Assembly: GCA_017622175.1 (NCBI GenBank)
Contig: JAGARQ010000029.1
Coordinates: forward strand, 30,002 to 94,001
Length of the DNA stretch: 64,000 bases
Direction: 5' to 3'
From: Bacilli bacterium
Lineage (GTDB): Bacteria; Bacillota_I; Bacilli_A; RF39; UBA660
In this document: positions 6,443 to 52,810 of the stretch, piece after piece
How positions within the stretch are numbered: the first letter of the stretch is position 1
How the letters are laid out: the number at the start of each line of letters is the position of its first letter
Program-made: the position numbers and the translations under genes
The notes under the pieces: model-generated
Databases searched by the model: none
The model's input: the letters and a program-made list of their open reading frames with translations, nothing else
What the model was told of the DNA's origin: nothing

Positions 6443-6470
6443 AAAAATATTCCCGAAGGAATATTTTAAT
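6441..6470. terminator. Bidirectional rho-independent terminator between convergent genes
   Basis: 10-bp stem AAAATATTCC (6444-6453) / GGAATATTTT (6458-6467), loop CGAA. An A-run lies on one side and a T-run on the other. It sits between the stop at 6442 (+) and the rubrerythrin stop at 6473 (-). Confidence 0.6.
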
Positions 6471-6472
6471 TA

Positions 6473-7015
6473 TTATTTATAGTTGTCAGCTTGAACTTCC
6501 ATATAGCTTTGTGGATGTGCGCATACTGGACATACATCAAGAGCTTTATCACCTTCATATACGTGACCACAGTTACGACATACCCAGATTTTCTTTCCGT
6601 CTTTTTTAAATACACGATCATCTTTAATATTTTGTAATAAAGTTCTATATCTATTTTCGTGTTCTTTTTCGATTTCTCCAACCATTTCAAATAATTTAGC
6701 TAAACGAGTAAATCCTTCTTCTTTTGCTGTTTCAGCAAATTCTTTATACATTTCTGTCCATTCGTAGTTTTCACCCATTGCAGCATCAAGTAGGTTTTCT
6801 TCTGTTGATGGTACTGATCCACCATGTAATTCTTTAAACCATATTTTTGCATGTTCTTTTTCATTATTTGCTGTTTCTTCGAAAATAGCAGCTAATTGTT
6901 CATAACCATCTTTTTTTGCTTTACTTGCATAGTATGTATATTTATTTCTTGCTTGTGATTCTCCTGCAAATGCAGTCATTAAGTTTTGTTCTGTTTTACT
7001 TCCTTTTAGTTCCAT
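6473..7015 (-). CDS. rbr: Rubrerythrin
   Basis: 180 aa. [30 protein letters not shown] ferritin-like diiron domain with EKEH repeats, plus a C-terminal rubredoxin-like CRNCG...CPVC. Confidence 0.9.
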
Positions 7016-22898: not shown

Positions 22899-22959
22899 AT
22901 TACTACTTCCTTTCTTTTTTCCATATTATTATAACTTATCTTTTATTAAGTGTCATTAA

Positions 22960-23742: not shown

Positions 23743-23746
23743 TTAA

Positions 23747-26059
23747 TTACCCCGCTTTAAAGTAGGCAAATGTACTTGTGTTTCTCCAGTCATATTGTGC
23801 CCACATATCTGTACTACTACTTCCTGGGTCCATCATAATAATTGTTTGTCCAGCTATAGCATCAACGGCTACCCAGTGTTGTCCTGTATTACCTTTAACT
23901 TCTGCAACGACATAATATCCTTGATTCATTAGGTCTGTAAGTGTTTTAAGTTTTTGATTTTTTGTATATCCTGAAACATATGCTCTTCCAACGAATTGGA
24001 ATGATGGAGCTGCTTTTGATACTGATGCCCATACGTAGTTTCCTCCAGATACAAACCCACCATTATTGTTTAAGAATTGGACAAATGTTCCTGGGTTAAA
24101 ATCATTTATTACTGTTGGAACTCCACTTTTTGCAACTAACATAGAAATTGATGTAACTAAACATCCTATTTGTCTAATATTTTTACCACTGTTTCCCATT
24201 GGAACTGTTGTCCATGGTCCTTCGTATTGTTTCCAACTTGCATATGGACCAGATGATGCTGTTCCACAGTTTGCAGAACCTGCTGTATTACAAGACATTT
24301 TTTGAATATCGGCTGCTCCATAGTTTCTATTTCCAGAGTTATATACTTGTAATAACATTTGTTTATAGTTCATTCCTTGACTTGCAAGACTAGATAATAA
24401 TTTTTGTTCTGTTGACAGATATCCTGCTTGAATAATATATCCTTGGTCATTAACTAATACTTCTCCTGCTGTTGCAGCCATTGCTGTTCTTAGTTGATGT
24501 TCTGCTGCCAAGGCATCTCTTGTTCTAACTGCTCCTGGAACCTTACCGCTTCGACAGATACCACCTTGTCCATCTCCGCCACCCATAAATGAGCATCCTT
24601 CGTTGATGTTACAGAATACTTGATCAGCTACACATGAAGATATTTGTAATACCCATCTACCATTTTCTTCTTCTAACTTTTTACCTAAGGCATTTCCCAT
24701 ACCAGTAGGTCTTGCTAAAGCAAAACTTCTTGCCATAACCATTTGTGCTTTTAGCACTTCTATATGTGCACTAGGTCCAACCTCTGCATATGCAACACCG
24801 GCAACATATTCTTCAAATGGTACTAAGTCTTGATCGATAGCTTTACCATATGTTCCATTTCCATAAGGTTTACCGCATTCCATCAATCTAACCATTAAAT
24901 TTGATATCTGCATTTGTTTTGGGATGTTTCCTGCTCCTGGGATGTAAAAGCCTTTAATATCATAATTACATGCACCTGCTGCTGCACATCCGTATCCTTC
25001 TGAACCAATGAAACTAAAATATCTGTCCATATAATCAAATACTTCTTCTGTCATTTGTTCACGTTTCTTTTGTGAGGTTCTCGGAAAATATTTATAGAAA
25101 ATTACATTTGTTAGATTATATTTAAATGTTGTTTCATCATAGACGTTTCCACTAAACATGCCATTTGCTATTTCAGTTATCACAGACTCTGTCATAAATT
25201 TATAATCATAGTCGTTATTATTAACATTCATGACATGATATACTGATGCTATTTTTAATGCATCTACACTTTTTCCATTTGCTTGCATTTTTAATTTTAC
25301 AGAGTTAATTCTGTCATAAAATGCTTGAGCTTCTGGGTCTGATGCTGTGAAAACGATGTTTCCTGTTTCGCCACCTGCAGCTCCACTAGCCCCTAGTGCA
25401 TCGTCAAAGTCGGCTACTCCACCACCTACTGCTCCAGATATTGCAAAGAAAAGTAATAATATTCCTGCAAGGGGAGCAACTAAAAGCATAATTGCTTTAG
25501 TTTCTGGTTTCATTTGAAATTCAAACATTGAGTCTAATGGGTCTTGTTCTTCTCCACCCATATCATCTCCGTCATCCATCCAATTTTTGGGTTTCTTTCC
25601 TCCAAATCCTTTGCCAAATCCACCAGATGAATCTGATGATGAACTTGAAGTTGAAGATGCTTTGTCTGCAGCATTTGCCGCATCCCCTGCTTTTGAAGCA
25701 GCATCTGCACCTCCAGATCCACCATTACTCATTCCGTTTTTAATGGCTGCTGCTTGTCCAATTTTATCACTTGCTCCACTTTCACTCATTTTATTTAGTG
25801 AATTTTGAACTTGATTTCCTCCTGGAGCCATTTTATTAGCTTGATTTAGGGCTTTTCCTGCCATTTCAGTACTTTTACCACCCGTAAGTTTATCAGCTGC
25901 TTTAACAGCAGCTCCTGCAGCCATAGCATAAGGATTACCGGAAGCCATGGCTACTTCAGCTGCATTTCTTATGTTGTTAGCATTATTTTGAATATTACGT
26001 TCATCTTGCGACATTTGATTTTCTCTTTGATCGCCTTCACGATTTGCTTCGTATGCCAT
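23747..26059 (-). CDS. Bifunctional cell-wall hydrolase: SpoIID/LytB-like domain plus C-terminal Cys-peptidase (CHAP/C39-like), VirB1 analog
   Basis: 770 aa. ~190-aa G/A/S/N-rich N-region, one TM (AIMLLVAPLAGILLLFFAISGAV). SpoIID-like FEEYVAGVAYAEVGPSAHIEVLKAQMVMARSFAL...ATAGEVLVNDQGYIIQAGY. C-terminal IGCLVTSISMLVAKSG...GQHWVAVDAI (Cys/His pair). Confidence 0.65.
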   Translation of the reverse strand: MAYEANREGDQRENQMSQDERNIQNNANNIRNAAEVAMASGNPYAMAAGAAVKAADKLTGGKSTEMAGKALNQANKMAPGGNQVQNSLNKMSESGASDKIGQAAAIKNGMSNGGSGGADAASKAGDAANAADKASSTSSSSSDSSGGFGKGFGGKKPKNWMDDGDDMGGEEQDPLDSMFEFQMKPETKAIMLLVAPLAGILLLFFAISGAVGGGVADFDDALGASGAAGGETGNIVFTASDPEAQAFYDRINSVKLKMQANGKSVDALKIASVYHVMNVNNNDYDYKFMTESVITEIANGMFSGNVYDETTFKYNLTNVIFYKYFPRTSQKKREQMTEEVFDYMDRYFSFIGSEGYGCAAAGACNYDIKGFYIPGAGNIPKQMQISNLMVRLMECGKPYGNGTYGKAIDQDLVPFEEYVAGVAYAEVGPSAHIEVLKAQMVMARSFALARPTGMGNALGKKLEEENGRWVLQISSCVADQVFCNINEGCSFMGGGDGQGGICRSGKVPGAVRTRDALAAEHQLRTAMAATAGEVLVNDQGYIIQAGYLSTEQKLLSSLASQGMNYKQMLLQVYNSGNRNYGAADIQKMSCNTAGSANCGTASSGPYASWKQYEGPWTTVPMGNSGKNIRQIGCLVTSISMLVAKSGVPTVINDFNPGTFVQFLNNNGGFVSGGNYVWASVSKAAPSFQFVGRAYVSGYTKNQKLKTLTDLMNQGYYVVAEVKGNTGQHWVAVDAIAGQTIIMMDPGSSSTDMWAQYDWRNTSTFAYFKAG

Positions 26060-26085: not shown

Positions 26086-27876
26086 TTAGAATCCTCCGCC
26101 TGAACCGAATGAATCTAACTCTTCTTTTGTTACTACTACGTTAATTCTCATACGTCTACTTCCACATACAAACAGTGCTTCTCCTTGAGAATAACGTTTA
26201 ATGCTTTCTTTTTCGTTTTCATTCAAGTCAATTAATCTTGATAAATCTTCAACAGCTTGTTTCTTTAATCCCATTACTAAGTAATAAGAAGCATTATCGA
26301 AAATAGCTTTTCCATCAGTAATTACTGCTTCATCAGCAAAGTCACTTGGTTGTTGAGTTATGATTATTGTTCCAGTATTGTATTTACGAGCTCTTCTTTG
26401 TACTTGAGCTAAGAACTCTGAACCTTGTTGATTTCTACTACTCATTAATACGTGAGCTTCATCAACTAATAATACTGTATCTACACTTGGATCTAAGCAT
26501 AATCCCCAAGCATATTTTAAAACATTGAATAATAAAGCATTTCTTATATTTGCATCACTATTCATTAATTCTTTAATATTAAATACCATGAAGTCACTAC
26601 CTCGTGGTAATGTTGTGTGTCCATCGAAATAGAATCTTAATTCTTTAACGATTGGTCTAATTTCTAGTTCTAGTCTTTCCATGATATCACGTTCTTTTGT
26701 TTGATCTGTCATAGAAAGAAGTCTTCCCTTAATTGTTGCATAAACATCTGAGAATATTGGGAAATCTTTTGATGAGAATGATGAGAAATCTGTATCAAAG
26801 TCTATACCAAAACGTTTATATGTATCTTGAACTACATCACTAAACATAGCTAAAACATCTTGTGCTATTGCTGGGTTATAGTATTTCATAAAACCTTTAA
26901 GGAAATTTAATGTTCTATTTAATACTGTATATCCCATTCCTTGTTTAATTTCTTCTTCATCCGCGTCAAAAATTACTTCTAGTGGATTGATAAGTCCAAA
27001 TTCTCCACCCTTACCAATATCTACAGTGTCTCCTCCAAAAGATCTTGTGATTTCTCTGAATTCATCTTCTGGATCGATTATAACAATTTGACAACCATTT
27101 CTAATATGTGTTCTCAATAATAGTTTTGCTGCGGTTGATTTTCCTGAACCAGATGTTCCTAGAATAATCATATTAGCATTATTTCTATTATGTTCTTTTC
27201 TTATTTTATATAAGAATTGGTTAAATAGAATTACTCCTCCAGAGAAGTCAACACCTAATAATGTTGATAATCCTGGATCTTTAATACTATCGAAAATAAA
27301 TGGATACATAGCCGCTACTGTTACTGAAGGAATTGGTGTACCAATTCTTTGTTCAATATCTTGTGATGGGAATATTGGTAGCATTGATTTCAATACTTTT
27401 TCTTGTTCAAAGCGTAGTGAAATTGCTCTTAATTCCATTGCATCTAAATAGTTTTTAACATTCATTTTCTTTAATTCTAATTCTTCTTTTGTATTTGCAG
27501 CAATCATGATATGCATTTGGAAATCAAAGTTTTTGGCTTGGCTTCCAGCAATCATTGATGTAAAGTATTCCAAACTTTCTGCATCTTGTCTTAATCTTTC
27601 ACGAATAGTTTGGTCTCTTTCATTACGATATTTTTCTTTTAAATCTGCTACTTCTTTATTTAACATCTTAACCATATCTTGATATGGAACTGGAATATGT
27701 TTAACAACAATTTTAATACCAGCCATGTTTGTAAGTGATGCTAAATAACCAGGTGTAATGTATTTTGGAAATGATACAACAGTTAAAATTGTTGCATATT
27801 TATCACTTATAAAAAAATCACTTGGTGAGAAATGTAACCCCTTCGGAGCTAATTGACTTCTTAAACCTGTACTCAT
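26086..27876 (-). CDS. virB4: VirB4-family T4SS ATPase (ATPase part)
   Basis: 596 aa. LAPKGLHFSPSDFFISDKYATILTVVSFPKYITPGYL N-region typical of Gram-positive VirB4 (TraE/PrgJ/TcpF type). Walker A ILGTSGSGKST, Walker B VLLVDEAH, IIITQQPSDF. Confidence 0.85.
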   Translation of the reverse strand: MSTGLRSQLAPKGLHFSPSDFFISDKYATILTVVSFPKYITPGYLASLTNMAGIKIVVKHIPVPYQDMVKMLNKEVADLKEKYRNERDQTIRERLRQDAESLEYFTSMIAGSQAKNFDFQMHIMIAANTKEELELKKMNVKNYLDAMELRAISLRFEQEKVLKSMLPIFPSQDIEQRIGTPIPSVTVAAMYPFIFDSIKDPGLSTLLGVDFSGGVILFNQFLYKIRKEHNRNNANMIILGTSGSGKSTAAKLLLRTHIRNGCQIVIIDPEDEFREITRSFGGDTVDIGKGGEFGLINPLEVIFDADEEEIKQGMGYTVLNRTLNFLKGFMKYYNPAIAQDVLAMFSDVVQDTYKRFGIDFDTDFSSFSSKDFPIFSDVYATIKGRLLSMTDQTKERDIMERLELEIRPIVKELRFYFDGHTTLPRGSDFMVFNIKELMNSDANIRNALLFNVLKYAWGLCLDPSVDTVLLVDEAHVLMSSRNQQGSEFLAQVQRRARKYNTGTIIITQQPSDFADEAVITDGKAIFDNASYYLVMGLKKQAVEDLSRLIDLNENEKESIKRYSQGEALFVCGSRRMRINVVVTKEELDSFGSGGGF

Positions 27877-28433
27877 ACTGGCATCACCACCCCAAATTCT
27901 GTAGTACTTCCACCATTTAGGAAGTTTTCTAAGATTATTCTTAAATCTGCATTACTTGCTTGAGCTGATGCCATTCCGCAAGATGCTAAACCATTAATCA
28001 TCATTCTTACTCTTTTTGCTAAAAGATCAGGGTCTTTTGATTTAAATAAAAAATAATATTCTGTGTCTACAATGTTGTTATTAATAAATGTTTGTCCTTT
28101 ATTAATATCTTGCATAATTAATTTTCTAATTGCTGGTGTATGTGCTTCATTAAATAGAAGTTGCATTTGAGATAGGTAAACAGAAATGTCTACTGGTCTA
28201 TCAGCTACTACTAACCAGAATTCAAAATCAATTGTATTATAAAAGTTTTTTAGACTAATAAGCATATTATCTTGTGCTATTGGGTCTAAGATAAAAATAT
28301 TTTTTGGAGATATTTTAACTCCTGTTACTTTGTAATTATCCTTTGTAATAATCATATTGTTTTGGATACCTCGCACTGGTAGCCAATCTTCTGTATAACC
28401 ACTACTTACGTTTTTTGATGACTTTTTCGCCAC
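27873..28433 (-). CDS. VirB4 N-terminal-domain-like protein, translationally coupled to VirB4
   Basis: 186 aa. The stop overlaps the VirB4 start (GTATGAGT, ATGA overlap at 27873-27876). TEDWLPVRGIQNNMIITKDNYKVTGVKISPKNIFILDPIAQDNMLISLKNFYNTIDFEFWLVV resembles the N-terminal segment of long Firmicute VirB4s as I recall them. The GTG start overlaps the upstream ORF by 32 nt. Confidence 0.5.
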   Translation of the reverse strand: MAKKSSKNVSSGYTEDWLPVRGIQNNMIITKDNYKVTGVKISPKNIFILDPIAQDNMLISLKNFYNTIDFEFWLVVADRPVDISVYLSQMQLLFNEAHTPAIRKLIMQDINKGQTFINNNIVDTEYYFLFKSKDPDLLAKRVRMMINGLASCGMASAQASNADLRIILENFLNGGSTTEFGVVMPV

Positions 28434-28728
28434 TTCTAAAACACCAACCTTTCCATCTATATGTTTGATTCGTTGTTATAAATTCATACATTTCAATTAG
28501 GATATTAAGTATGTTATGGTAATAAGGTACAGGTAAAACTAAAAATCCAGTAATAAGCGCAGGGCTCAACACTAGTATAGTTACAAATGTTGAGCTTAGC
28601 GGCATAAATGCTAGAAATATAAATGTTATTAAAATACCTGTTCCAAATAACACCAAATCAAATGGTTTAAACATTCCAAGTATTAATTTTCCCTTTTTTG
28701 TATTGGCGGGAATTAAATAGTTACGCAC
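28402..28728 (-). CDS. PrgI/TcpE/VirB3-like small 2-TM T4SS protein
   Basis: 108 aa. IPANTKKGKLILGMFKPFDLVLFGTGILI followed by a second TM. Lies immediately upstream of VirB4, as for PrgI/VirB3. GTG start 9 nt after AAAGGAGTG. Confidence 0.55.
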   Translation of the reverse strand: MRNYLIPANTKKGKLILGMFKPFDLVLFGTGILITFIFLAFMPLSSTFVTILVLSPALITGFLVLPVPYYHNILNILIEMYEFITTNQTYRWKGWCFRSGEKVIKKRK

Positions 28729-28751: not shown

Positions 28752-30815
28752 CTATGGTCTTGGAGGTGGTCCACCAGGTCCTCCACCAGCCCATGGATAA
28801 GCATCATCTGTAAGTCCTGTATAACCTTCTTTAGTATCTGATTCATATGTATAATGTTGTCCTGTTGTTGTTGGATTTCTGTGTGCTGAATCAATTGATG
28901 CATCTGGCGGTGTTTGAGCATCTAAAATTGGATTTCCAGCTTCATCAAGTGCAACACCTCTGTATTGTACTTCGATTGGTCCTGCATCACCAGCATCATA
29001 TGTATATGTTGTATCTGTTGAAGTTGTGTGAACTTTTCTTGCTGAACGATATGTGTCTTGACGAATGTCAATTACACGTGGTGTTGTACCAAGTACACTT
29101 CTTTGTTCTTCCATTGTTTTAACAACTTTAGCAGCTTTTCCAGCTCTAGATGAAGCATTTTGATATGCATCATATAGTTTTTCATATCTATCACGTGCAG
29201 CTGCTTTTCCTGCTGCATCAGATGTTTCGTAATCCATTTTTGCCATTTCCATTTGTTTTTGTAATGCCGCTGCTCTATCATCCCAAGTATCTTGTTCATA
29301 TTTAGCTGCAGCAAGGGCATTACGTCCAATACCAAGTTCATTGGCACGTCTTTCTCTTGTTTCATAGTTAAGTCTATCTTGCATGTATCCAGCAAGTCCA
29401 CCATGAGCATCTTTATCTCCAGTTCTAATTTTAGCCATTGTATCGCTGTTTTGTGACCAGATAGCTCCAAGTGGAACAGCTTTTCCTTGATTGTATCCTT
29501 GAGTAGCTGCTTCTGTTCCTTGCATTGCTCCGTAGGCAAATCCTTTTAGACCACCACCACCAGCAAGCATTGCTGTTCCTCCAAGTAATCCTGCAAGTCC
29601 AACATTTGAACCAGCTCCCTTGATTCCAAGAATATCTTTTATAAACTTAGGTGCTTGTTTTACGAAGAAGAATAATCCTATCCAGATAAAGATACAAGAT
29701 AATACTCCAACAAGACCTGTTCCTGTATTGATTACAATTCCATTAACAATCATATCTTGAATTAGGAATATTACAAAGTAGATTACTGCTAAATGAATAA
29801 ATAATTCTAAGTATGTTGATGTTAAGGCTTTTGTCCAAGCACCAAATGCTCCATCTTTTTCTGATTTTGGATCGATGTAACTAATAATTGGAATTGGTGC
29901 AAGTAAACGTAATACTGCTAATTTTACTGAACGAATTGCAATTGTAATAATTTCTCCTAAAAGGATATAAATAAAGATTGCTGCTACAATTGTAGATACA
30001 ATTGGTAAATATGCAAATACATATCTATCTCCAGTAAATAATCTTGTAAAGAATGCTGCCATTGTATCAAAGAAACCATCATTACCTTGATATTCACAAC
30101 TTGCATTTACTAATGATAATATTTGATTTGGACTTGCTTCTAAATCTGCATAGGCATCTAAAACATCTTGTTCAATAAAGTCACAAACTCTATCGTCTGG
30201 ATTTGTTTCATCCATACCACCAGATTCTTTCATATTAATTCTTACAAATCCTTTAAGGATTGTTGAGGTAAACATATTAGCAGATTTTTTTAGTTTTTCT
30301 GCTTGAGTTAATGCTGTATTGGTTCCTCCACTTCCACTAGAACCAGTTCCATCATTTGTTCCTAATATTAATCTACCTAAAGTGTTGTTTTCTAAAATTC
30401 TATCTTGCAACTCATATAATGTACCAAATAATAAACCGTTATTATTAAGATTAATTTCATAACTACTTCGCGCTCCTGGAATATTAATTGGAGTTAATAC
30501 TGTTAACATAATTAGAGCAAAAATAACCCTACTGATTATGCTCGAAAATCCTGACTTTTTATCTGTAAAAGTATCAGGATTGATTATACCTTGAATAATT
30601 GAAACTCCAAGTTTAAATAGCATGAATACACCTATAATCATTTGAACACGACCATAGAATTTTTGTACTGTATCATTTGCAAAAATATCTGCACTTGCTA
30701 CGTTAAACAAAATTTCATACATTCCACCTAGTAATATGTATGCTGCTTTATCTAACAACGCGAATAAACTTCTAAACAAGTCGTTTATCGTGTTGGCTGT
30801 CATATAATCTGTCAT
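28752..30815 (-). CDS. VirB6/TcpH/ConG-like polytopic T4SS channel protein with ~270-aa hydrophilic C-terminal extension
   Basis: 687 aa. At least 6 TM helices in the first ~400 aa, interrupted by a Gly/Ser loop (GTNDGTGSSGSGGTN). Position between VirB2-like and VirB3/VirB4. The C-terminal region is soluble, partly coiled-coil-like, and ends WAGGGPGGPPPRP. Confidence 0.6.
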   Translation of the reverse strand: MTDYMTANTINDLFRSLFALLDKAAYILLGGMYEILFNVASADIFANDTVQKFYGRVQMIIGVFMLFKLGVSIIQGIINPDTFTDKKSGFSSIISRVIFALIMLTVLTPINIPGARSSYEINLNNNGLLFGTLYELQDRILENNTLGRLILGTNDGTGSSGSGGTNTALTQAEKLKKSANMFTSTILKGFVRINMKESGGMDETNPDDRVCDFIEQDVLDAYADLEASPNQILSLVNASCEYQGNDGFFDTMAAFFTRLFTGDRYVFAYLPIVSTIVAAIFIYILLGEIITIAIRSVKLAVLRLLAPIPIISYIDPKSEKDGAFGAWTKALTSTYLELFIHLAVIYFVIFLIQDMIVNGIVINTGTGLVGVLSCIFIWIGLFFFVKQAPKFIKDILGIKGAGSNVGLAGLLGGTAMLAGGGGLKGFAYGAMQGTEAATQGYNQGKAVPLGAIWSQNSDTMAKIRTGDKDAHGGLAGYMQDRLNYETRERRANELGIGRNALAAAKYEQDTWDDRAAALQKQMEMAKMDYETSDAAGKAAARDRYEKLYDAYQNASSRAGKAAKVVKTMEEQRSVLGTTPRVIDIRQDTYRSARKVHTTSTDTTYTYDAGDAGPIEVQYRGVALDEAGNPILDAQTPPDASIDSAHRNPTTTGQHYTYESDTKEGYTGLTDDAYPWAGGGPGGPPPRP

Positions 30816-30843: not shown

Positions 30844-31911
30844 CTATTGTAATCCACAGATTCCACTTGATGTTATATTAAATAGTTCTAATAGCGCTCC
30901 AATTAAATCTGGTAAGAAGAATAAACTGGCAGCAAGAATTAATCTTATGATTAATTTACTTTGCGCTTTTTTCATACCATCATCGTCACCCATTACAACA
31001 ACTTTAGCAAAATCTATACCGCTCATTACAACTACTATAAATGGACCAATTAATTTAATCCAATTAAATATAATTTGTAAGAAATATGCTACTGAATTTG
31101 GATCATTGTAACTACCTAAGATACTGTTATCTCCAGTACAATCTTGATTTTGATTATAATCTTCTAACCATTCATCCATATCAGGGTCACCATATGCTGC
31201 GTGATATGCTCTAGCACTTGTTTCTTGACCATCTGTTAAACTATAACCACTTTCTTTTTTATTAGATAATAAATATACATAAACGTCATTTTCTTTTTTT
31301 ACATTTCTAAATATTAATTCATGATTATCTAATAATGTGTTATCTATTTTAATTTCTAATTTATTATCTTTATATACTTTAAATATTGAGTCGTTTGTTG
31401 AATCAAAGTTTAGTCCATCAACTGACCATTCTTTAGTTCCATCATCTAATACTCTTATGTATGGGATAAAATAGTTATCTTCATTATAAATTCCTACACT
31501 ACTAAGAGCAGTAGTCTCTACTGCTTTTTTTACAGAAATATTTGTGTTTGAATCAAATTCATATGCACTTATTGTAGTACATTTTCCATTACATTCATCT
31601 TTACTTTTAGGATTATTAAACACAGTTGTAAAGATTTCTGTTTCTTCAATTGTGATTGTTGGACAAACATAACTATTACTATTTTCTTTTGCTAATTTTA
31701 AATATTTTTTAGCAAAGTCTTGTTCATGATACCAATTATTTTTTCCATCTTCAAATGGCAATTCTGTTTTACCATTAATTGTATAAACTAATTCTTTATC
31801 TTGATATTGATATTTACATGTTACCTTTGCTTCTTTTGCATTAATATTATTTGGTATAAGCAGTGCTACTAATACTGCTAAAATTAAACCAAAAAGTTGC
31901 TTTTTTTTCAT
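30844..31911 (-). CDS. Secreted protein with C-terminal VirB2/TrbC-like two-TM hairpin
   Basis: 355 aa. Signal peptide MKKKQLFGLILAVLVALLIPNNINA, ~250-aa ectodomain. The C-terminus IGPFIVVVMSGIDFAKVVVMGDDDGMKKAQSKLIIRLILAASLFFLP is homologous to the 106-aa ORF upstream. Confidence 0.55.
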   Translation of the reverse strand: MKKKQLFGLILAVLVALLIPNNINAKEAKVTCKYQYQDKELVYTINGKTELPFEDGKNNWYHEQDFAKKYLKLAKENSNSYVCPTITIEETEIFTTVFNNPKSKDECNGKCTTISAYEFDSNTNISVKKAVETTALSSVGIYNEDNYFIPYIRVLDDGTKEWSVDGLNFDSTNDSIFKVYKDNKLEIKIDNTLLDNHELIFRNVKKENDVYVYLLSNKKESGYSLTDGQETSARAYHAAYGDPDMDEWLEDYNQNQDCTGDNSILGSYNDPNSVAYFLQIIFNWIKLIGPFIVVVMSGIDFAKVVVMGDDDGMKKAQSKLIIRLILAASLFFLPDLIGALLELFNITSSGICGLQ

Positions 31912-31950
31912 AAGATCACTCCAAATACATTATAACATATTAAGTATAAC

Positions 31951-31986
31951 AAAAGAAAAAAAAAATAGCAATTTATTTACTATTTT
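31951..31986 (-). terminator. Weak hairpin / possible attenuator after the VirB2-like gene
   Basis: 7-bp AT-rich stem AAAATAG (31962-31968) / CTATTTT (31980-31986), 11-nt loop. Followed on the minus strand by about 10 T's. Weak stem. Confidence 0.25.
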
Positions 31987-32003
31987 TTATTTTTTGCTTT
32001 ATA

Positions 32004-32324
32004 TTATACTGATTCCCAGCAAGACCACCAATTTCCAGTATTTCCAGTTCCACCTTTAGCAACAACATCCATTACTGCTTTTACTAGGAATACTACGAAG
32101 AAAATTAGCGCTGCATAAATAGCACGTTTGATTAATCTACTTTGTGCTGCCTTAACTTCTTTTTCATCACTTGCAATTACTGCTTTACCGAAATCGATAA
32201 CTGCATATACAAGTAATGCAATTGGAATAACAATATATACAATTGGGAATAACCCGTTTTTAACTAAACTTACTAGTGGGTCTAATCCTCCACAAGCTGA
32301 AGCTAATTGAACTAATTCTAACAT
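32004..32324 (-). CDS. VirB2/TrbC-like pilin-type T4SS protein (two-TM hairpin)
   Basis: 106 aa. Two TM helices joined by a charged loop: FPIVYIVIPIALLVYAVIDFGKAVIASDEKEVKAAQSRLIKRAIYAALIFFVVFLV. Strong RBS GAAGGAGAGG. Size and topology match VirB2/TrbC and the pilin-like conjugal transfer proteins of Firmicutes/Mollicutes. Confidence 0.55.
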   Translation of the reverse strand: MLELVQLASACGGLDPLVSLVKNGLFPIVYIVIPIALLVYAVIDFGKAVIASDEKEVKAAQSRLIKRAIYAALIFFVVFLVKAVMDVVAKGGTGNTGNWWSCWESV

Positions 32325-32379
32325 ACAAACCTCTCCTTCAATGTATATAATACATTATATCATTTTTTTTGTCAAATAT

Positions 32380-33459
32380 TTAACGTCTAAATAAACCAAA
32401 TATTTTTCCAGAACCATTACCACCTTGGGTTATTTGTAATAAACCAATTTTAGCAAGTAATTCGGTTACAATTTCATTTTTCTTTCTATCGTTTACTGGT
32501 GGTAAATTAAAGAATGATTTGATTCCTGCTTCATACTCTAATTCACTTACATCTTTACTAGTTAGTAAACTTTGATTGAAAACGATTTTTTTATCTTTTA
32601 TTTTTCCAAAAATATTTTTGTTTTTTCTAATTAATTTATTTAATTTTAATGTGCTTGGTTCTAATAGATATATTACATCATCACAAATTGAATTATCTTC
32701 ATAATCATTTAAATCTATTAGAAGTACAGATATTCCACTATATCTTTCAATTAGTGTTTTTACATCATTTGTTGTTGTTGATAACATATTTTTATCATTG
32801 TAGAATTGAAAATCATTTTTGTTTATTTCTACTGCAACAACATTGTTTTCACCAAATACTGATGCTAATTCTTTTTTAAACATATAAATTAAACTTGTTG
32901 CTCCTGCATGTTCTGTAACATTTCTAACTCCAACTTTTATAGTTCTTGCCATGTTACCTTGCTGAACTTGAACTTGATGATGAGCAGGTGCAATAAATCC
33001 TCCACCTGCTGGAGCATGTTGTTCTTCTACTTGTTCTTGAGCTGGCTCTGGTTGTTGAAGTTCTTCAATTACTCCACCACCCATTTGTTGGATATGAGCC
33101 ACATCATTATATGTATTTGAATTTTTTAGTAAATATTTAACCCCATCAATATTTGTTGTGAAATTATATATTCCTAAGGTTACTAGTTTAGCTAAGAAAG
33201 TTGGAGTACATAGACTACTACCTTCTGGAATATAGAAAATAATTTTATCAGCATCTAAACCATCTGCTAATGTCTTATATTCTAAGATATTATTATAATT
33301 TTTTATTGCTGTTACATCTAGAACCATTTTACTATAGAAGAAATTTTTAAACATTTCAACTAATTCATTAGAACTATATGCACCAGTTATGCTTTTAATA
33401 ATATCGACATCTAAGTTAGCCATTTGACTTTGTTGTTCATTTGAAACTATTACGTTCAC
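32380..33459 (-). CDS. TadZ/CpaE-like protein: receiver-like N-domain plus ParA/MinD-like domain with degenerate Walker A
   Basis: 359 aa. N-terminal ~125 aa with CheY-like beta/alpha periodicity, then a Q/P-rich linker (QQPEPAQEQVEEQHAPAGGGFIAPAHHQVQVQQG). IKVGVRNVTEHAGATSLIYMF stands in place of KGGxGK[ST]. VLLIDLN is Walker-B-like. GTG start. Confidence 0.45.
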   Translation of the reverse strand: MNVIVSNEQQSQMANLDVDIIKSITGAYSSNELVEMFKNFFYSKMVLDVTAIKNYNNILEYKTLADGLDADKIIFYIPEGSSLCTPTFLAKLVTLGIYNFTTNIDGVKYLLKNSNTYNDVAHIQQMGGGVIEELQQPEPAQEQVEEQHAPAGGGFIAPAHHQVQVQQGNMARTIKVGVRNVTEHAGATSLIYMFKKELASVFGENNVVAVEINKNDFQFYNDKNMLSTTTNDVKTLIERYSGISVLLIDLNDYEDNSICDDVIYLLEPSTLKLNKLIRKNKNIFGKIKDKKIVFNQSLLTSKDVSELEYEAGIKSFFNLPPVNDRKKNEIVTELLAKIGLLQITQGGNGSGKIFGLFRR

Positions 33460-33482
33460 TCTGTATCACTCACCCTTTACAA

Positions 33483-33953
33483 CTATTTCATAACTATAGG
33501 CTTTGTATCACCTGAAATTTGGAATATCTTTAGTCCAGGTAATATTTTATTAATGATTGGTATGTCTATATTAATTTGTGTAACTACTTTAAAATAGGCT
33601 CTATCTTTTGTATCTTGCGTACTACCAACTTGAACTGAATTCATTGGTATTTTCTTAATACAATATCCTGCTCCATCACCACAATCCCATTTTGCACCAT
33701 TTTCTTCATCTTTTAAATCTAAGTTTGGCGCATTATATCCTAGAGAATTCATATATGATTGTATTTCTAGGTGACAATCATTTGTTGGGTCTACTTCACA
33801 TTGACCTTCATATTGCTCTATTGTTGAGATAATTTTATTTTTTACTCTGAATGCTTTAGTATAGTTAACATTGAATGCTAAATATCCAGAGACTAGTGTA
33901 AGGAACACAACGATGATAGCTAAGTTTGCTACCCCACCAAAAGCATCACGCAT
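33483..33953 (-). CDS. TadE/TadF-like pseudopilin candidate
   Basis: 156 aa. MRDAFGGVANLAIIVVFLTLVSGYLAFNV is a short polar leader ending in Gly-Gly followed by a hydrophobic helix. Four Cys in the ectodomain. Lies directly downstream of the Flp-like ORF. Confidence 0.45.
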   Translation of the reverse strand: MRDAFGGVANLAIIVVFLTLVSGYLAFNVNYTKAFRVKNKIISTIEQYEGQCEVDPTNDCHLEIQSYMNSLGYNAPNLDLKDEENGAKWDCGDGAGYCIKKIPMNSVQVGSTQDTKDRAYFKVVTQINIDIPIINKILPGLKIFQISGDTKPIVMK

Positions 33954-33971
33954 TTAAACACACCTTCTTTA

Positions 33972-34139
33972 TTACTTTTCTACAATTACAGTACTAACTC
34001 CACCTGCAGTGATGTTGTCCCATTGAGCATTTAATGACTTTTGAATATTTGGCCACATAACCCAGAAGAATCCGATAACTGCAGCGATTGCTACTAATGT
34101 AATAACTGTTAAGTTTAATTCACCTGTCGCATCTTTCAT
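33972..34139 (-). CDS. Flp-like prepilin (55 aa), absent from the ORF track
   Basis: Hand translation: MKDATGELNLTVITLVAIAAVIGFFWVMWPNIQKSLNAQWDNITAGGVSTVIVEK. ATG at 34139, TAA at 33972-33974. RBS AAAGGATGG. Short charged leader ending in Gly plus a ~22-residue hydrophobic helix. Occupies the canonical flp slot between tadC and the tadE-like gene. Confidence 0.6.
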   Translation of the reverse strand: MKDATGELNLTVITLVAIAAVIGFFWVMWPNIQKSLNAQWDNITAGGVSTVIVEK

Positions 34140-34172
34140 TTACTTTTACCATCCTTTCATTATCATAATTTT

Positions 34173-34201
34173 ATTATAACAAAATAATATTTGTTAAACA
34201 A
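34173..34201 (-). promoter_or_regulatory. Internal sigma-A promoter driving the Flp-like pilin gene
   Basis: Minus strand reads TTGTTT (34201-34196), 17-nt spacer, TGtTATAAT (extended -10, hexamer 34178-34173), about 35 nt upstream of the pilin ATG. Confidence 0.5.
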
Positions 34202-34217
34202 CTTTTTTTTAGTTGGT

Positions 34218-35024
34218 TTACATACTGAACATTGATAGCATTGCTATTAAAATAATAAGCATTACACCAACACCAGTAACAACAAGCATTACCATAGTTT
34301 GTGATTCCATAAATCCTAAACGTTCTTTATATTTTGTTTCACGAGCTTTATTTTGTAATGCTGAAACTGTTTTTGAGAACATCATTAAACGTTCTTGTTT
34401 CTTTTCTTGAGAACCAAGTCCTAAACGATATAATAAACGCATCATACGCATTGAATCTCTTACTGGATATGTATTTGCAAATTCCATATAAGGATCAATT
34501 GTTGCATCACCGGCATTGATTCTATCTATTAATTTTCTAAGTCCAGGTTTGAATATTTCAGGAGCATCGTCAATTGATTTTCCTAAGGCTACTGGAACTG
34601 TATAGTGTTGAATTAATATTTCCAAACTCTTTAAATAGTATGGCAACATAATATCAATTTCATGTAAATGTTTTTTATAATAACTTTTTAATTGTGAGTA
34701 TGATGATTTAAATACTACAAAGGCAACTACTCCTGCGATTGCTAAGTATAAGAAGAATTCAGATCCTAATGTGTCTTGATTTCCACCACTTACTGCAAAT
34801 CCTAAAACGATAAAAAATGTAATGATTGCATAAGTTACTCTTTGCATATATAGTTGTTTAGTATCAACATTATCACCATATCTTGCATATACTAAGAATT
34901 CATAGTCTTTTTCTTTTAGTGCTTCTAGATATTTTTCGTTATCTGCGAAGAATTTATTCTTATCAATGGTATTATTGTAAATTAATACAAATAGTATAAT
35001 TGCACCTATAATTAATACTTCCAT
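34218..35024 (-). CDS. tadC: TadC-like platform protein (T2SSF domain)
   Basis: 268 aa. TM helices flank a cytoplasmic helical domain (LKSLEILIQHYTVPVALGKSIDDAPEIFKPGLRKLIDRINAGDATIDPYMEFANTYP), as in GspF/TadC. Second of two such genes after tadA. Confidence 0.6.
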   Translation of the reverse strand: MEVLIIGAIILFVLIYNNTIDKNKFFADNEKYLEALKEKDYEFLVYARYGDNVDTKQLYMQRVTYAIITFFIVLGFAVSGGNQDTLGSEFFLYLAIAGVVAFVVFKSSYSQLKSYYKKHLHEIDIMLPYYLKSLEILIQHYTVPVALGKSIDDAPEIFKPGLRKLIDRINAGDATIDPYMEFANTYPVRDSMRMMRLLYRLGLGSQEKKQERLMMFSKTVSALQNKARETKYKERLGFMESQTMVMLVVTGVGVMLIILIAMLSMFSM

Positions 35025-35026
35025 TA

Positions 35027-35929
35027 TTATTCAGCTCCTACATTTTCATTATAATATTTTTCTCCTTTTAGAAGGAAATATGTATTTACTATAATTACTG
35101 CATGTAATAAGAATTGAACATACCATCTTTCTAATAGAAGAATGTAACTTTCATTACCTAATAAAAGTTGTACTAACATTACTAATAGGTATAATGTAAT
35201 ACCGAATGTTAGGAAGTTCTTATGGAAGGAAGATCTTTCAATACGGTCACGATATACGCTTTCAATTAACATGTCGATATCTAATTGCATATTATCAAGT
35301 GAATCGGCTGAGTTTCTTGCTCCTTCTTTTGTAATTTGTAAGAATAATTGGTGCATATTTTTTACTATATAATAAGGATATAATTCACTCATGTACTCTA
35401 ATGCTTCATCTATTGTACCATTGTCATATGATAATTCAATCATATGATTTACATCACTTAGAACAGGGTCTTCAAGAATACCTGAGTTTCTAACTCCTTC
35501 TAATGATTTAACAAATGATTGTGTTGTTGCAAATTCCATAATAACGTTTGATGTATATACTTGGATTTGCTCAAAGATAAATTCACTATAAACTCTTTTA
35601 CATCTTAAATAAGCTAAGTAAGGAACAAATGTTACAGCAATAACTGCATACATTAAACTAATAACAATATTATAAAAATATAAATAAGTTATTCCTGCTG
35701 CACCTCCTGCAAAGATACATATTTGCATTACATATTGCTTTGTTGTATATTCTTGCCCTAATTCTTTGGCTTTTTCTCTTACTACTTTGAAGGAGAATGG
35801 TGCGTATTTTTCATAGATTGTTGTAACTTGTTCAGTAATAAATTTTCCTACGTTTTGACCTTTGTAATTTCTATATAAGAAAACACCAACAATAATCACT
35901 ATAATTATTAATAGTTCTTCTACATACAT
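35027..35929 (-). CDS. tadB: TadB-like platform protein (T2SSF domain)
   Basis: 300 aa. SFVKSLEGVRNSGILEDPVLSDVNHMIELSYDNGTIDEALEYMSELYP plus flanking TM helices. Directly downstream of tadA. Confidence 0.6.
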   Translation of the reverse strand: MYVEELLIIIVIIVGVFLYRNYKGQNVGKFITEQVTTIYEKYAPFSFKVVREKAKELGQEYTTKQYVMQICIFAGGAAGITYLYFYNIVISLMYAVIAVTFVPYLAYLRCKRVYSEFIFEQIQVYTSNVIMEFATTQSFVKSLEGVRNSGILEDPVLSDVNHMIELSYDNGTIDEALEYMSELYPYYIVKNMHQLFLQITKEGARNSADSLDNMQLDIDMLIESVYRDRIERSSFHKNFLTFGITLYLLVMLVQLLLGNESYILLLERWYVQFLLHAVIIVNTYFLLKGEKYYNENVGAE

Positions 35930-35948
35930 ACAAACACACTCCTTTCTA

Positions 35949-37244
35949 TTATAGACTATCTAGTTTTGCAACTGCAGGTTGTGAAGGAGTTGCAGAAGCA
36001 GTTGGTTGAGGAGTTGTTGTTTGTTGAACTACAGTTTGTGTTGGTAACGGTTGAACTGTAGGTTGTGCTTGTTGAATTGTATCCTTTTTATCCTCTACTT
36101 TTACTTCCTTCTTTTCTTCAGGAGTTGCCTGACTGATAGAATTATCTTCTAATTTTAAATCTTCTTGTTCTTTAAATGGCATATCATCAGGTAAATTATC
36201 AACTATAGCACTTACATCAATATTTTGATTTTCTAGGAATTGAAGCAAGTGTTCACTTGGCTTACGCATAACAGGATTTTTACCAAATATTTTTTGATAA
36301 ATAATTCTTGATTGAGGAACATTGTTATCATCTACGTAGAATTCACAAACTTCATCTAATTCACGATGGAACTTTCCTCTTTCTTTACTATAGTAAGCTT
36401 TGATATGTACACCCAATTGGATGTAGCGATATATTGTTGATAAGAATTGATTAACATCTAAGTCTGTTTCCATAAGTGAATAAAGACGATATGGAATTGC
36501 TGATGCTTTATCAGCGTGGATTGTAGATAAGATGTTGTGTCCTGATGAAATTGAGTTACGTACTGCAGAAACTGCTTCAGCACTACGAACTTCTGATAGT
36601 AGAATCCATTTTGGATTCTGACGCATACAAGTAACTAATACATCTGAGTAACTTGCAACGTTGTTGGTCTTCATTGAAACAATATCTCTTTGTGGGAAGA
36701 TTTTGTCTAAGTGAAGTTCCAATGTATCTTCAATTGTGATAATTTTTTCACTTGTTTTAGTATGACTAGCTAGATATTTAACGAACTCTGTTTTTCCGGA
36801 ACCAGTTTCTCCTGCTACCATAACATTACAGTGTCCTTGTACACAATTTATTAATAAATCATGAACATCTTTTGTAAAGTAGTCATCTTTAATTAATTTG
36901 TCTTTTTCCAAACGAATTTTTGCTGGTGTTTTACGAATAACCAAGGCAATTCCGTTTGTAGCAATTGACTGGTGTACGAAGTTCATACGCAACTCTGCGG
37001 ATTCTGCATCTAGAAAAGGCTTAGCATTATTAAATGTTGTTCCCATTACGTTAGAACATTGGAATGCTAATTTTTCTACGAATTCGGGAGTTGCACCTTC
37101 TATTTCTACACGTAGGGATCCCTGAGTTAGAGAACGTATCCATATTTGCCCTCCGTTACTGTATGAAATATCGGTAATATCATCGTTGTCTAATAATGGA
37201 CGAAATGCACCGAAGTCTAACTTGTCAAAAATATTTTCATTCAT
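35949..37244 (-). CDS. tadA: CpaF/TadA-family secretion ATPase (VirB11/T2SSE superfamily) with P/Q/T-rich C-terminal tail
   Basis: 431 aa. Walker A VAGETGSGKTEF, Asp box ITIEDTLEL, Walker B WILLSEVRSAEA, His box GHNILSTIHAD. The last ~90 aa are low complexity (QQAQPTVQPLPTQTVVQQTTTPQPTASATPSQP). Confidence 0.85.
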   Translation of the reverse strand: MNENIFDKLDFGAFRPLLDNDDITDISYSNGGQIWIRSLTQGSLRVEIEGATPEFVEKLAFQCSNVMGTTFNNAKPFLDAESAELRMNFVHQSIATNGIALVIRKTPAKIRLEKDKLIKDDYFTKDVHDLLINCVQGHCNVMVAGETGSGKTEFVKYLASHTKTSEKIITIEDTLELHLDKIFPQRDIVSMKTNNVASYSDVLVTCMRQNPKWILLSEVRSAEAVSAVRNSISSGHNILSTIHADKASAIPYRLYSLMETDLDVNQFLSTIYRYIQLGVHIKAYYSKERGKFHRELDEVCEFYVDDNNVPQSRIIYQKIFGKNPVMRKPSEHLLQFLENQNIDVSAIVDNLPDDMPFKEQEDLKLEDNSISQATPEEKKEVKVEDKKDTIQQAQPTVQPLPTQTVVQQTTTPQPTASATPSQPAVAKLDSL

Positions 37245-37292
37245 CTAACTCACATCCCTTTAATATCTTTTTGTTTTCTTTTATTCTTTATT

Positions 37293-38099
37293 TTATGTTT
37301 CTTGCCAAACTGTAACTTTATTAATCCAGTCTTTTAATGATTCACTACTGATTTCTAATTCTCCTGGTTCATCTTTTAAACTTTCGTTTGTTGGAACTGG
37401 GATTAGTGTTGAATCATATGTTCTTAAGTATTCTGCTTTCTTTAATAAGATATAGTATTCTTCTGGTAAAGCAAATACTATCATTGATGGTGTTCTTTGC
37501 TCATCTAAATTTGAGAATACTGCTTGTCCAGCTGAATCTTTAACTGCTAATACTTTTACGTTAGACATTAATTTTCCTAACATAATCTTGTTAGCATCTG
37601 CTGTCATTTCTTCTCCATCAGCAATTTTATTAACTGCTTTTAGGTAAATATCAATGTAGTTACCTGGGTAAACTGAGTTACCGTATGTTGTTTGTGTTGT
37701 AACTGACATATTATATAATACGTATCCTTTTGGATATGTAAGGATAATATTTCCTGGTAGTTGTTCTTTTTCTACTACTGTTCTTTCATAGAATAAACTA
37801 CCTGCAGGTATAACTGTATCTGCACTTGAGAATTTATCAATTACTGCACTTTGAGATGTAATAACATCTCCTTCTAACATTGATGGTGGAACTGCTCTTG
37901 TACCAACCATATTTGCGGTAATTTGTGTTCCTGGTGAAATTTGTTCTTTGGCATATGGTACATTTATTGGATTGATAGCTGATTGAACACGCATATTATA
38001 TGCAACATATAATACAATGATTGCAACTACTACTCCAAGAACAGTTACAGTGTTTTTGTTTTGTAAAAACTTTTTAATTCCTGTAGTTAGATTTCCCAT
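37293..38099 (-). CDS. CpaB/RcpC-like Flp pilus assembly protein (SAF domain)
   Basis: 268 aa. N-terminal TM, then AKEQISPGTQITANMVGTRAVPPSML (SAF-like), IPAGSLFYERTVV, PGNYIDIYL, VKVLAVKD, MIVFALPEEYYILLKKAEYL. These match the CpaB pattern. Confidence 0.65.
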   Translation of the reverse strand: MGNLTTGIKKFLQNKNTVTVLGVVVAIIVLYVAYNMRVQSAINPINVPYAKEQISPGTQITANMVGTRAVPPSMLEGDVITSQSAVIDKFSSADTVIPAGSLFYERTVVEKEQLPGNIILTYPKGYVLYNMSVTTQTTYGNSVYPGNYIDIYLKAVNKIADGEEMTADANKIMLGKLMSNVKVLAVKDSAGQAVFSNLDEQRTPSMIVFALPEEYYILLKKAEYLRTYDSTLIPVPTNESLKDEPGELEISSESLKDWINKVTVWQET

Positions 38100-42431: not shown

Positions 42432-42439
42432 TGTTACAC

Positions 42440-44251: not shown

Positions 44252-44259
44252 AATGCCTC

Positions 44260-52713: not shown

Positions 52714-52810
52714 TTCCTTGCTTCTTAAGATTATTTTATCAAATTTATATTTTTTTGGGAATTATTTTATATTAGACTTTACAGAATAAAAAAAGATGTA
52801 TAAACATCTT

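Follow-up and report, generated by a model that had tools for sequence, protein, structure and literature searches.

Two adjacent genes in a 64,000-nucleotide stretch of DNA from a Bacilli bacterium (contig JAGARQ010000029.1; the whole stretch is called the window here, and coordinates are counted from its first letter) encode proteins that share a homologous two-helix membrane hairpin. The small pilin-like gene (32004..32324, minus strand) specifies 106 residues, and the second pilin-like gene (30844..31911, minus strand) specifies 355 residues and places a secreted domain in front of the hairpin. The interpretation we prefer, with moderate confidence, is that they are paralogous T4SS_pilin-type subunits of a chromosomal, FATA-like type IV secretion system (T4SS) of a monoderm bacterium, encoded beside a Tad-like pilus, with the small protein as the abundant core subunit and the large protein as a rare variant that bears an ectodomain. 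The evidence consists of the homology of the module, its family-wide matches, a conserved transcriptional layout, a conserved gene neighbourhood, the arguments for the topology and the variability of the ectodomain.

Homology of the two-helix module

The sequence-only reading of this DNA had placed both open reading frames (ORFs) correctly, with the lengths, coordinates and strand given above. They are separated by 92 nucleotides, and all genes of this part of the window lie on the minus strand. It had also proposed that both ORFs carry the same transmembrane-loop-transmembrane module, which proved to be real and homologous in a pairwise comparison. In a gapless BLASTP alignment, residues 25-97 of the small protein pair with residues 281-353 of the large one, with 34% identity over 73 residues and 60% positives (E 3e-12, composition-based statistics). 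Because the alignment also spans the polar loop (IDF.K.V...D...K.AQS.LI.R), the likeness is more than one of hydrophobic composition. Five columns are invariant among 19 small and 14 large orthologues, namely a Cys before helix 1, a Val, a Pro in helix 1, and an Asp and an Arg in the loop. The module profile used throughout, A2, consists of 19 small proteins and 14 C-terminal modules, and when compared with the six-frame translation of the window it retrieved exactly three ORFs: the small one (E 2e-46), the large one (E 7e-35) and a third at 51838-52761 (E 1.5e-11). A profile search of 1.84 billion cluster representatives returned 9265 relatives at E<=1e-3, counted as representatives of clusters at 50% identity, and 3106 at E<=1e-10.

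Spurious matches are frequent for transmembrane helices, and several family members match unrelated G-protein-coupled receptor (GPCR) and DUF families marginally. Both facts speak for the alternative that the similarity of the two proteins is a chance resemblance of hydrophobic segments. We assign it a negligible probability and regard it as refuted by the BLASTP E value, which was obtained with composition-based statistics and includes the polar loop, by the invariant C, P, D and R positions common to both subfamilies, by the joint profile, which recovers the 3106 representatives, and by the profile search of the window.

Family placement and the third paralog

The module may be placed, judging from sequence, as a divergent branch of the T4SS_pilin (PF18895) superfamily and of the pilin-like family of Mollicute integrative and conjugative elements (ICEs), because matches to PF18895 and to ICE proteins occur across the family and because another paralog within the window, the third, scores above the PF18895 threshold and aligns to A2. 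The PF18895 alignments of the window proteins span nearly the whole 71-position model, and all 33 members of A2 match it at E<=1 (best 8.5e-5). A further set of 148 proteins was scanned, comprising the best 146 relatives and the two window proteins, and 72 of these match PF18895 at E<=0.01, with a best value of 1.9e-7. The NCBIfam matches among the 148 are all to transfer proteins of Mollicute ICEs: MMCAP2_0566 (21 proteins), the Mbov_0395 pilin-like family (12 proteins at E<=0.01, best 5.1e-6) and Mbov_0396 (6 proteins). The suggestion of the sequence-only reading that the pair might belong with the Mollicute/Firmicute pilin-like conjugal transfer families has therefore held up, as the module falls in PF18895 and in NCBIfam Mbov_0395.

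The third paralog (51835..52713, minus strand) combines an N-terminal T4SS_pilin hairpin with a C-terminal NlpC/P60 domain, as found with the PF18895 and NlpC/P60 profiles. Its hairpin occupies residues 30-91 and is followed by the same ..DCW.. tail. It scores 31.7 bits against PF18895, for which the cut-off is 26.6, and matches NlpC/P60 at E 1.4e-14; when compared with the A2 profile by hhalign, a probability of 97.4% and an E value of 1e-11 were obtained. Its true start is probably Met-4 at 52704 and the listed GTG start wrong; the product starting at Met-4 is recorded exactly, in the same context, on 14 contigs. The gene lies about 20 kb from the secretion cluster, amid housekeeping and cell-wall genes (YceG/MltG, RuvX, U32 peptidase). 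Its neighbour, a membrane protein of 269 residues (51013-51822), has no family match.

Among the top 146 relatives, the module is extended at the N-terminus by more than 100 residues in 55 and at the C-terminus by more than 30 residues in 9, and the added domains in relatives that can be named are NlpC/P60, GDSL lipase, C39-like peptidase and the Listeria-Bacteroides repeat. Since so many relatives add N- or C-terminal domains, the hairpin is a widely used carrier of extracellular domains. One relative of 520 residues (P0180) joins the N-terminus of an SNF2-family helicase to an ectodomain and the module, and is most likely a chimera of gene calling or assembly.

A peptidoglycan hydrolase fused to one paralog, together with a small two-transmembrane protein with charged ends and a single marginal Holin_SPP1 match (E 0.14) in one family member, could also suggest that the module is a holin-like or bacteriocin/immunity-type peptide, with the NlpC/P60 fusion being endolysin-like and the secretion genes mere neighbours. 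We consider this highly improbable. The family matches are T4SS_pilin and ICE transfer proteins and not holins, no phage genes lie nearby, and the position of the pair between Tad-like and VirB6-like/VirB3-like/VirB4 genes is fixed in 81 of 86 loci from many species.

Architecture and topology

Structure models were made by AlphaFold2 with family alignments. The model of the small protein (mean predicted local distance difference test, pLDDT, 80) has two long helices, at residues 12-50 and 54-91, and a short C-terminal helix. The predicted layout is a short outside N-tail with C11, the first transmembrane helix, a basic helical loop GKAVIASDEKEVKAAQSRLIKR of net positive charge, the second transmembrane helix and an outside C-tail, which has a conserved W..CW motif containing C102.

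The N-terminus of the large protein is of the Sec type, MKKKQLFGLILAVLVALLIPNNINA/KE, and the signal peptide covers residues 1-25 (31837-31911, minus strand). It is followed by a Cys-containing, beta-rich ectodomain with a low-confidence stretch (residues 26-255; 31147-31836, minus strand) and by the hairpin module with the conserved C258 and C352 (residues 256-355; 30847-31146, minus strand). In the model, a signal-peptide helix is seen at residues 3-18, a beta-rich domain at about 28-225 with a pLDDT of about 90, a stretch below 50 at residues 230-255, and the hairpin helices at 274-307 and 310-343.

A peptidoglycan hydrolase of the NlpC/P60 type must act outside the cell. We argue for a topology of the hairpin proteins in which the N-terminus is outside, the loop cytoplasmic and the C-terminus outside, on the grounds that a strongly basic character is found in the loop and is absent from the tails, that the large protein has a signal peptide and ectodomain ahead of helix 1, and that the third paralog has NlpC/P60 behind helix 2. 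Each tail has one cysteine, C11 or C102 in the small protein and C258 or C352 in the large one. Among the 148 diverse relatives both positions reach a conservation of at least 90%, and a disulfide probably links the two outside tails in both proteins of the pair.

Two processing signals at the N-terminus of the small protein were considered and rejected. Its LASAC motif does not make it a lipoprotein by eye, as there is no basic n-region or h-region and relatives carry D or S ahead of the Cys. A double-glycine leader ending in CGG is contradicted by the varying N-terminal spacing and by the GG, which is unconserved in the wider family.

Transcriptional layout

The small gene is preceded by a sigma-70-type promoter-like site (32347..32375, minus strand), composed of TTGACA, 17 nucleotides and TATTAT, and then by the ribosome-binding site GAAGGAGAGG. 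The site is near consensus, with 11 of 12 positions in the scan. When the relatives were compared, TTGACA with a TATAAT-like -10 element (>=10/12) was found in 70 of 81 distinct upstream regions, and in most of the negative ones the start codon had been misplaced by the script.

Behind the small gene, 41 nucleotides past its stop codon, there is an intrinsic-terminator-like hairpin with a run of ten T (31956..31985, minus strand), so that the hairpin and T-run which the sequence-only reading had reported at 31951-31986 do exist. The element consists of the arm AAATAGTAA (31985-31977), the loop ATAAA, the arm TTGCTATTT (31971-31963) and T10 (31965-31956). The stem of 9 base pairs has one G-C, one G-U and seven A-U pairs around a 5-nucleotide loop, and the RNA of this region folds at -17 kcal/mol (z -4.45 when compared with shuffled sequences). 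A generic scan for GC-rich terminators misses the hairpin, which we account for by its single G-C pair.

To evaluate the conservation of the terminator, stems were sought in each sequence individually and compared with shuffled controls; a MAFFT alignment of the region, in which the stems were shifted against one another, gave no consensus with RNAalifold. Of 80 distinct relatives, 77 keep a hairpin of 5 or more base pairs (mostly 8-10) abutting at least 7 T, and for 77 of the 80 the real stem is equalled by no more than 10 of 200 shuffles. With two exceptions, the T-run of the relatives starts 16-53 nucleotides past the stop. The stems are of 32 distinct kinds, some of them fully compensatory, and include AGAACTTA/TAAGTTCT, AAGGAAATAT/ATATTTCTTT and TAGTAAA/TTTACTA; the first two of these pairs have no bases in common with the usual stem. 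Because the hairpin is kept while the stems differ in sequence, it carries the signature of a selected RNA structure. The earlier idea that this element could tune stoichiometry is now much better supported, as the element is conserved with compensatory stem changes in about 80 relatives.

From the promoter scan and from reading of the sequence, promoter-like elements of the second gene were located at 31929..31971 (minus strand). They comprise TTGCTA, 17 nucleotides and TG-n-TATACT (31971..31943), and a second extended -10 element, TGTTATAAT (31937-31929). The TTGCTA of the 3' terminator arm thus doubles as the -35 element of this promoter-like site, and between the two genes of relatives the block TTGCTAT(T)n..TG(A/T)TATACTTA..TGTTATAAT is found again. 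A promoter, a short gene and a terminator followed by the machinery genes is the layout expected for a subunit needed in large excess.

Five gut metatranscriptome assemblies were also compared. The small gene is covered by contigs in all of them, and the large gene hardly at all. When a likeness of 80% is allowed, the small gene collects contigs of many related taxa, and two assembled contigs end at 31997-32001, within the A-rich stretch before the stem. This coverage fits a highly expressed small gene but is weak evidence, because the contigs are assembled and the small gene is far more conserved than the large one.

Distribution and divergence in relatives

The small gene is present in at least 245 species-level genomes (GTDB representatives, one genome per species), and its protein is 95-99% identical in many metagenomic contigs, including a 1.39-Mb contig of a metagenome-assembled genome (MAG) labelled "Bacilli bacterium". 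The carriers among the matches listed are uncultured gut MAGs labelled Bacilli, Tenericutes, Mycoplasmatota or Candidatus Faecimonas (Bacilli incertae sedis), from a lineage which we guess to be RF39-type; the few bins with other taxon labels are probably mis-assignments. A tblastn search with the small protein gave no match in 72,556 plasmids.

We compared 86 loci, some of which end early at contig ends. Each gene of the Tad-like and secretion sets was found in 62 to 86 of them. A second module gene directly follows the small gene in 81; the other 5 have no second module gene within the retrieved sequence, and several of these end a few hundred bases from the small gene. The combination of a Flp-like and a VirB2-like candidate in one cluster, which had been called unusual, is therefore no peculiarity of this window; it is kept throughout the lineage and has precedents in R64 and in Patescibacteria (PMC12102498).

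Of the two paralogs, the second is the variable one, with a bimodal length distribution between 107 and 519 residues in the 81 pairs and an ectodomain that ranges from next to nothing to over 400 residues. In 43 pairs it has 107-200 residues and consists of a signal peptide, a few dozen residues and the module; in 29 it has 350-450 residues and carries an ectodomain. A signal-peptide-like N-terminus is present in 70 of the 81, and the ectodomain is alignable to that of the window in 32. In comparison with the window proteins, median identity falls from 60% (small protein) through 54% (module of the second protein) to 38% (ectodomain). One MAG encodes a small protein that shares 97% of its residues with that of the window, whereas its large protein is only 67% identical. 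The ectodomain (residues 26-255) belongs to no Pfam or NCBIfam family, and in a Foldseek comparison of the large model with the PDB nothing was found below E 0.1.

One locus (L089) has three tandem module genes before the VirB6-like gene (4122-6698 of that locus), encoding 109, 442 and 266 residues. The 109-residue copy is free, the 442-residue copy joins a small-type (..CW..) tail to a large ectodomain, and the 266-residue copy is of the second type.

Pilin subunit or membrane anchor

Calling the module "VirB2-like" is justified by its architecture, gene position and family name only. The small protein has two hydrophobic helices and a short basic loop, as in TrbC/VirB2 pilins, and the pair lies beside virB3, virB4 and virB6 genes, as a TrbC/VirB2 gene would. 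The likeness to VirB2/TrbC that the sequence-only reading had proposed was not borne out by a sequence or fold link. No match to PF04956 (TrbC/VirB2) was given by the window proteins, by the 33 members of A2 at E<=1 or by the 148 scanned proteins. As a VirB2 reference we used R388 TrwL, which is annotated as a VirB2-family major pilin and gave a control PF04956 match of 1.3e-19; the comparison covers the TrwL branch. By hhalign, TrwL against A2 gave a probability of 0.14%, and a TrwL profile of 82 sequences against a module profile of 167 sequences gave 0.2%. The module profile retrieved no pilin from the PDB sequences, only chance GPCR matches at E about 0.3, and Foldseek with the small model gave 8 PDB matches, all at E>4 and none of them a pilin, by a method that discriminates simple helical hairpins poorly. 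The small protein also has no long cleavable leader of the VirB2 kind, with 24 residues before the first transmembrane helix, no basic n-region and an ORF that cannot be extended.

These results weigh against a pilin, and several others do so as well. The window proteins themselves score under the curated cut-offs: against PF18895, for which the cut-off is 26.6 bits, the small protein reaches 15.1 bits (E 0.025) and the large protein 11.0 bits (E 0.48), and against NF045849 (Mbov_0395 pilin-like; cut-off 40) the small protein reaches 14.9 bits (E 0.016) and the large protein gives no match. The RNA data are assembled contigs, for which the stronger conservation of the small gene is a confounder. 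The enzyme-fused members and the paralog outside the cluster fit a generic membrane-anchor role equally well, and no monoderm T4SS has been shown to make a pilus (PMC4027160, PMC12857230).

A substantial alternative, which we rate as possible and less probable than the pilin interpretation, is that the hairpin forms no fibre and serves the channel as a two-helix anchor in the membrane or as a docking subunit, in a role like that of PrgF of pCF10 or CDS15 of the Mycoplasma ICE. The 355-residue protein would then be a surface adhesin or an enzyme-like domain which the hairpin holds at the machine, and the 106-residue protein a structural membrane component required in many copies. Besides the lack of VirB2 homology or a fold match, this alternative draws on the N-terminal (55) and C-terminal (9) extensions, including enzymes, among the top 146 relatives, on the hairpin-NlpC/P60 paralog amid cell-wall and housekeeping genes, on a 2025 review that calls Mycoplasma CDS15 VirB3-like and not a pilin (PMC12857230), and on the view that monoderm conjugation systems are pilus-free (PMC4027160). 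However, a separate VirB3-like ORF is already present ahead of VirB4, and the dedicated strong promoter and terminator around the 106-residue gene are the layout of a large-excess subunit. Also, the tandem arrays of divergent copies resemble pilin arrays, and the conserved Cys pair in the outside tails suggests that the extracellular face matters.

Proposed mechanism

We favour a major subunit with a rare variant bearing an ectodomain because the layout is that of a subunit in large excess and because the second paralog combines the hairpin with a variable domain and co-transcription with the machine. In this model, the 106-residue protein would be the abundant core subunit, produced from its own near-consensus promoter and strong ribosome-binding site and followed by the conserved terminator. 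The 355-residue protein would be a low-copy variant, made from the second-promoter transcript together with the VirB6-like, VirB3-like and VirB4 genes, and its Sec signal peptide would place the fast-evolving ectodomain outside the cell. VirB4 may drive the uptake of both subunits at the VirB6-like platform. The small subunit would build a stalk or a short pilus-like conduit, and the large subunit would be incorporated rarely, at the tip or as an initiator, such that the ectodomain is presented to the surface of a partner cell. The Tad-like pilus could serve to attach or to retract, a part played by type IV pili in R64 and Patescibacteria (PMC12102498).

We infer polymerisation, location, partner, in vivo stoichiometry and the role of the ectodomain for this pilin-like pair, and a fibre with a tip or cap is consistent with the data but unproven. 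Any tip role of the ectodomain protein would be by analogy only, and no likeness to VirB5, TraC or CagL was found by Pfam, NCBIfam or Foldseek against the PDB.

A wider proposal, which we regard as speculative and rather unlikely, is that this gut Bacilli lineage builds a VirB2-analogous monoderm pilus or stalk, with a hairpin shaft and exchangeable adhesin-like or wall-degrading tips, and that together with the Tad-like pilus the relaxase-less chromosomal machine serves an obligate cell-to-cell interaction with other gut bacteria, for instance uptake or delivery. If true, such a machine would be analogous to the essential T4SS and pilus of epibiotic Patescibacteria and might help explain the uncultured status of the lineage.

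Comparison with known systems

In reviews, monoderm T4SSs are described as being without VirB2 homologues and pili (PMC4027160), and Patescibacteria are singled out as unique monoderms with the potential for conjugative pili (PMC12857230). The family itself is already known from Pfam and NCBIfam, and arrays of VirB2-like pilins are known in Patescibacteria (Quinonero-Coronel et al. 2025, PMC12102498; reviewed in PMC12857230). According to the searchable literature, what is new is the occurrence of the family in a chromosomal Tad and T4SS locus throughout a lineage of gut Bacilli; the systematic combination of a free copy with one that bears a signal peptide and ectodomain; the hydrolase fusions, with the hairpin as a carrier of large fast-evolving ectodomains; the near-invariant Cys pair in the outside tails; and the conserved layout of promoter, gene, terminator and second promoter, from which a major and a minor subunit are predicted. 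With its 9265 representatives the family is very large, and it offers testable candidates for the way in which Gram-positive secretion machines span the wall towards a partner cell.

The system of Patescibacteria with PF18895 proteins is similar in many respects. Both have a two-helix hairpin of about 70 residues, with a sequence link to the window module, FATA-type VirB4, VirB3 and VirB6 neighbours in a chromosomal, relaxase-less system, tandem divergent copies and a co-occurring type IV-filament pilus. The three-module array of L089 also resembles the VirB2-like arrays of Patescibacteria (PMC12102498). The differences are that the host here is a Bacilli lineage, that the window proteins are under the Pfam cut-off, that one copy here has a 230-residue secreted ectodomain and another NlpC/P60, with a conserved Cys pair in the tails, and that the partner pilus is Tad-like here and type IVa there.

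In the Mycoplasma ICEs, a small hairpin protein likewise stands beside larger hairpin proteins (Mbov_0395, Mbov_0396 and MMCAP2_0566), upstream of a Mollicute-type VirB4, and the window VirB4 best matches that VirB4 family. The models of the larger ICE proteins have a similar hairpin at about model positions 55-125. Mbov_0395 is probably CDS15 of ICEA, and both CDS15 and CDS16 are required for transfer of the Mycoplasma ICE (PMC6030558). In contrast to these elements, the window score is far under the curated cut-off (14.9 vs 40 bits), the larger ICE proteins have the hairpin near the N-terminus whereas it is C-terminal in the 355-residue protein, and the ICEs are mobile with a DDE transposase whereas the present locus is chromosomal with no mobility genes found.

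The likeness to VirB2 and VirB5 of mating-pair formation (MPF) systems of type T (R388 TrwL/TrwJ, Agrobacterium) is function-like, in that a small two-helix subunit with a basic loop is combined with a rarer distal subunit, and the genes adjoin virB3, virB4 and virB6. Here, however, there is no detectable relationship in sequence or fold, the small protein is without the long leader, the envelope is monoderm, and in place of a helical protein of VirB5 type the candidate minor subunit is a domain-bearing paralog of the major one. Two paralogous pilin-like genes per locus are also described for TraQ/TraR of MPF-I and Tfc9/Tfc10 of MPF-G (Guglielmini et al. 2014, PMC4027160), but those are diderm systems and no ectodomain fusion is described in them.

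PrgF of pCF10 resembles the small protein in size, two-transmembrane hairpin, charged loop and position upstream of PrgH (VirB6-like), PrgI (VirB3-like) and PrgJ (VirB4-like), yet no similarity was detected (hmmsearch E 0.28, hhalign 0.3%). PrgE, PrgF, PrgG, PrgH, PrgI and PrgM of pCF10 all show no similarity to the module profile. Finally, a T4SS is encoded together with a type IV-filament pilus, or depends on one, in the IncI plasmid R64 (thin pilus), in PAPI-1 and in Patescibacteria (PMC12102498, PMC12857230), and the present case differs in that the Tad-like set is head-to-tail with the secretion genes, chromosomal and lineage-wide.

Genomic context of the pair

The window is chromosomal DNA of low GC content (about 28%). 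The cluster spans about 19.3-45.8 kb (window 19315-46444), and the housekeeping genes around it encode Lon, trigger factor, a class I tRNA synthetase, RmuC, GreA, U32 peptidases, YceG, a sigma factor and a pseudouridine synthase. In the order of transcription, the 5' part of the cluster has genes for surface, Ig-like and sortase proteins, then DUF5411 and then the Tad-like set, after which come the small gene, the large gene, the VirB6-like gene, the VirB3-like gene, a split VirB4, a SpoIID-domain protein, a 260-residue protein and VirD4. The ORFs scanned, which comprised every larger one of the cluster and most of those in the window, yielded no relaxase, integrase or transposase, and the cluster looks like a fixed chromosomal system and not an ICE.

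Directly downstream of the pair lies the gene of a VirB6/TrbL-like polytopic membrane protein of 687 residues (28752..30815, minus strand), which matches pLS20_p028 at E 4.4e-10 and TrbL_4 at E 0.0027. It is followed by three ORFs (26086..28728, minus strand) for a VirB3-like protein (108 residues) and the N-terminal (186 residues) and C-terminal (596 residues) parts of VirB4. NCBIfam VirB4_plasma (Mbov_0397) matches over consecutive parts of the model at E 2.4e-101, 1.4e-14 and 0.024. The ORFs overlap by 32 and 4 nucleotides, and the middle one is in another frame. The 108/186/596 split is identical in close relatives and reads 107/183/595 residues in a more distant one. TGA recoding or a sequencing error as the origin of the three-piece VirB4 was rejected on these two grounds, the other frame of the middle ORF and the recurrence of the split in relatives, and the recurrence likewise speaks against a fault of assembly. 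The last part of the cluster (20547..26059, minus strand) encodes the VirD4-type coupling protein (783 residues, E 1e-58), a 260-residue membrane protein and a 770-residue SpoIID-domain protein, which is a candidate for the cell-wall hydrolase of the system.

The Tad-like genes lie directly upstream of the pair (32380..38099, minus strand). Their order is an RcpC/CpaB-like protein, a CpaF/TadA ATPase, two polytopic proteins of TadB/C size and proteins of 55 (Flp-sized), 156 and 359 residues. Relatives keep this order, and they also keep that of the pair and the VirB6-like, VirB3-like and VirB4 genes. The ATPase is clear (T2SSE E 4.2e-28), and the RcpC/CpaB match (RcpC E 4.9e-6) is just under its cut-off. 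The small ORFs of this region have no Pfam or NCBIfam match, and no prepilin peptidase was found among the ORFs scanned. The 55-residue protein (33972-34139, minus strand) has a highly conserved N-terminus, MK(A/D)ATGELNLTVITL, and shows neither a Flp family match nor a G/XXXXEY motif.

Several minor observations concern the same region. The 156-residue protein (33483-33953, minus strand) begins with MRDAxGG... and is a pseudopilin in appearance. The 359-residue protein (32380-33459, minus strand) has no family match and is conserved in 84 of the 86 loci; judged by eye, its C-terminal half could have a ParA/MinD-type fold with a degenerate P-loop (..EHAGATSL..) and be TadZ/CpaE-like. Further upstream (region 38621-45813, minus strand), no LPXTG-type sorting signals were found in the large proteins beside the sortase. 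The sortase gene (41583-42431) overlaps the start of a secreted protein of 1000 residues, and a 603-residue Ig-like surface protein and a 517-residue protein are its other neighbours.

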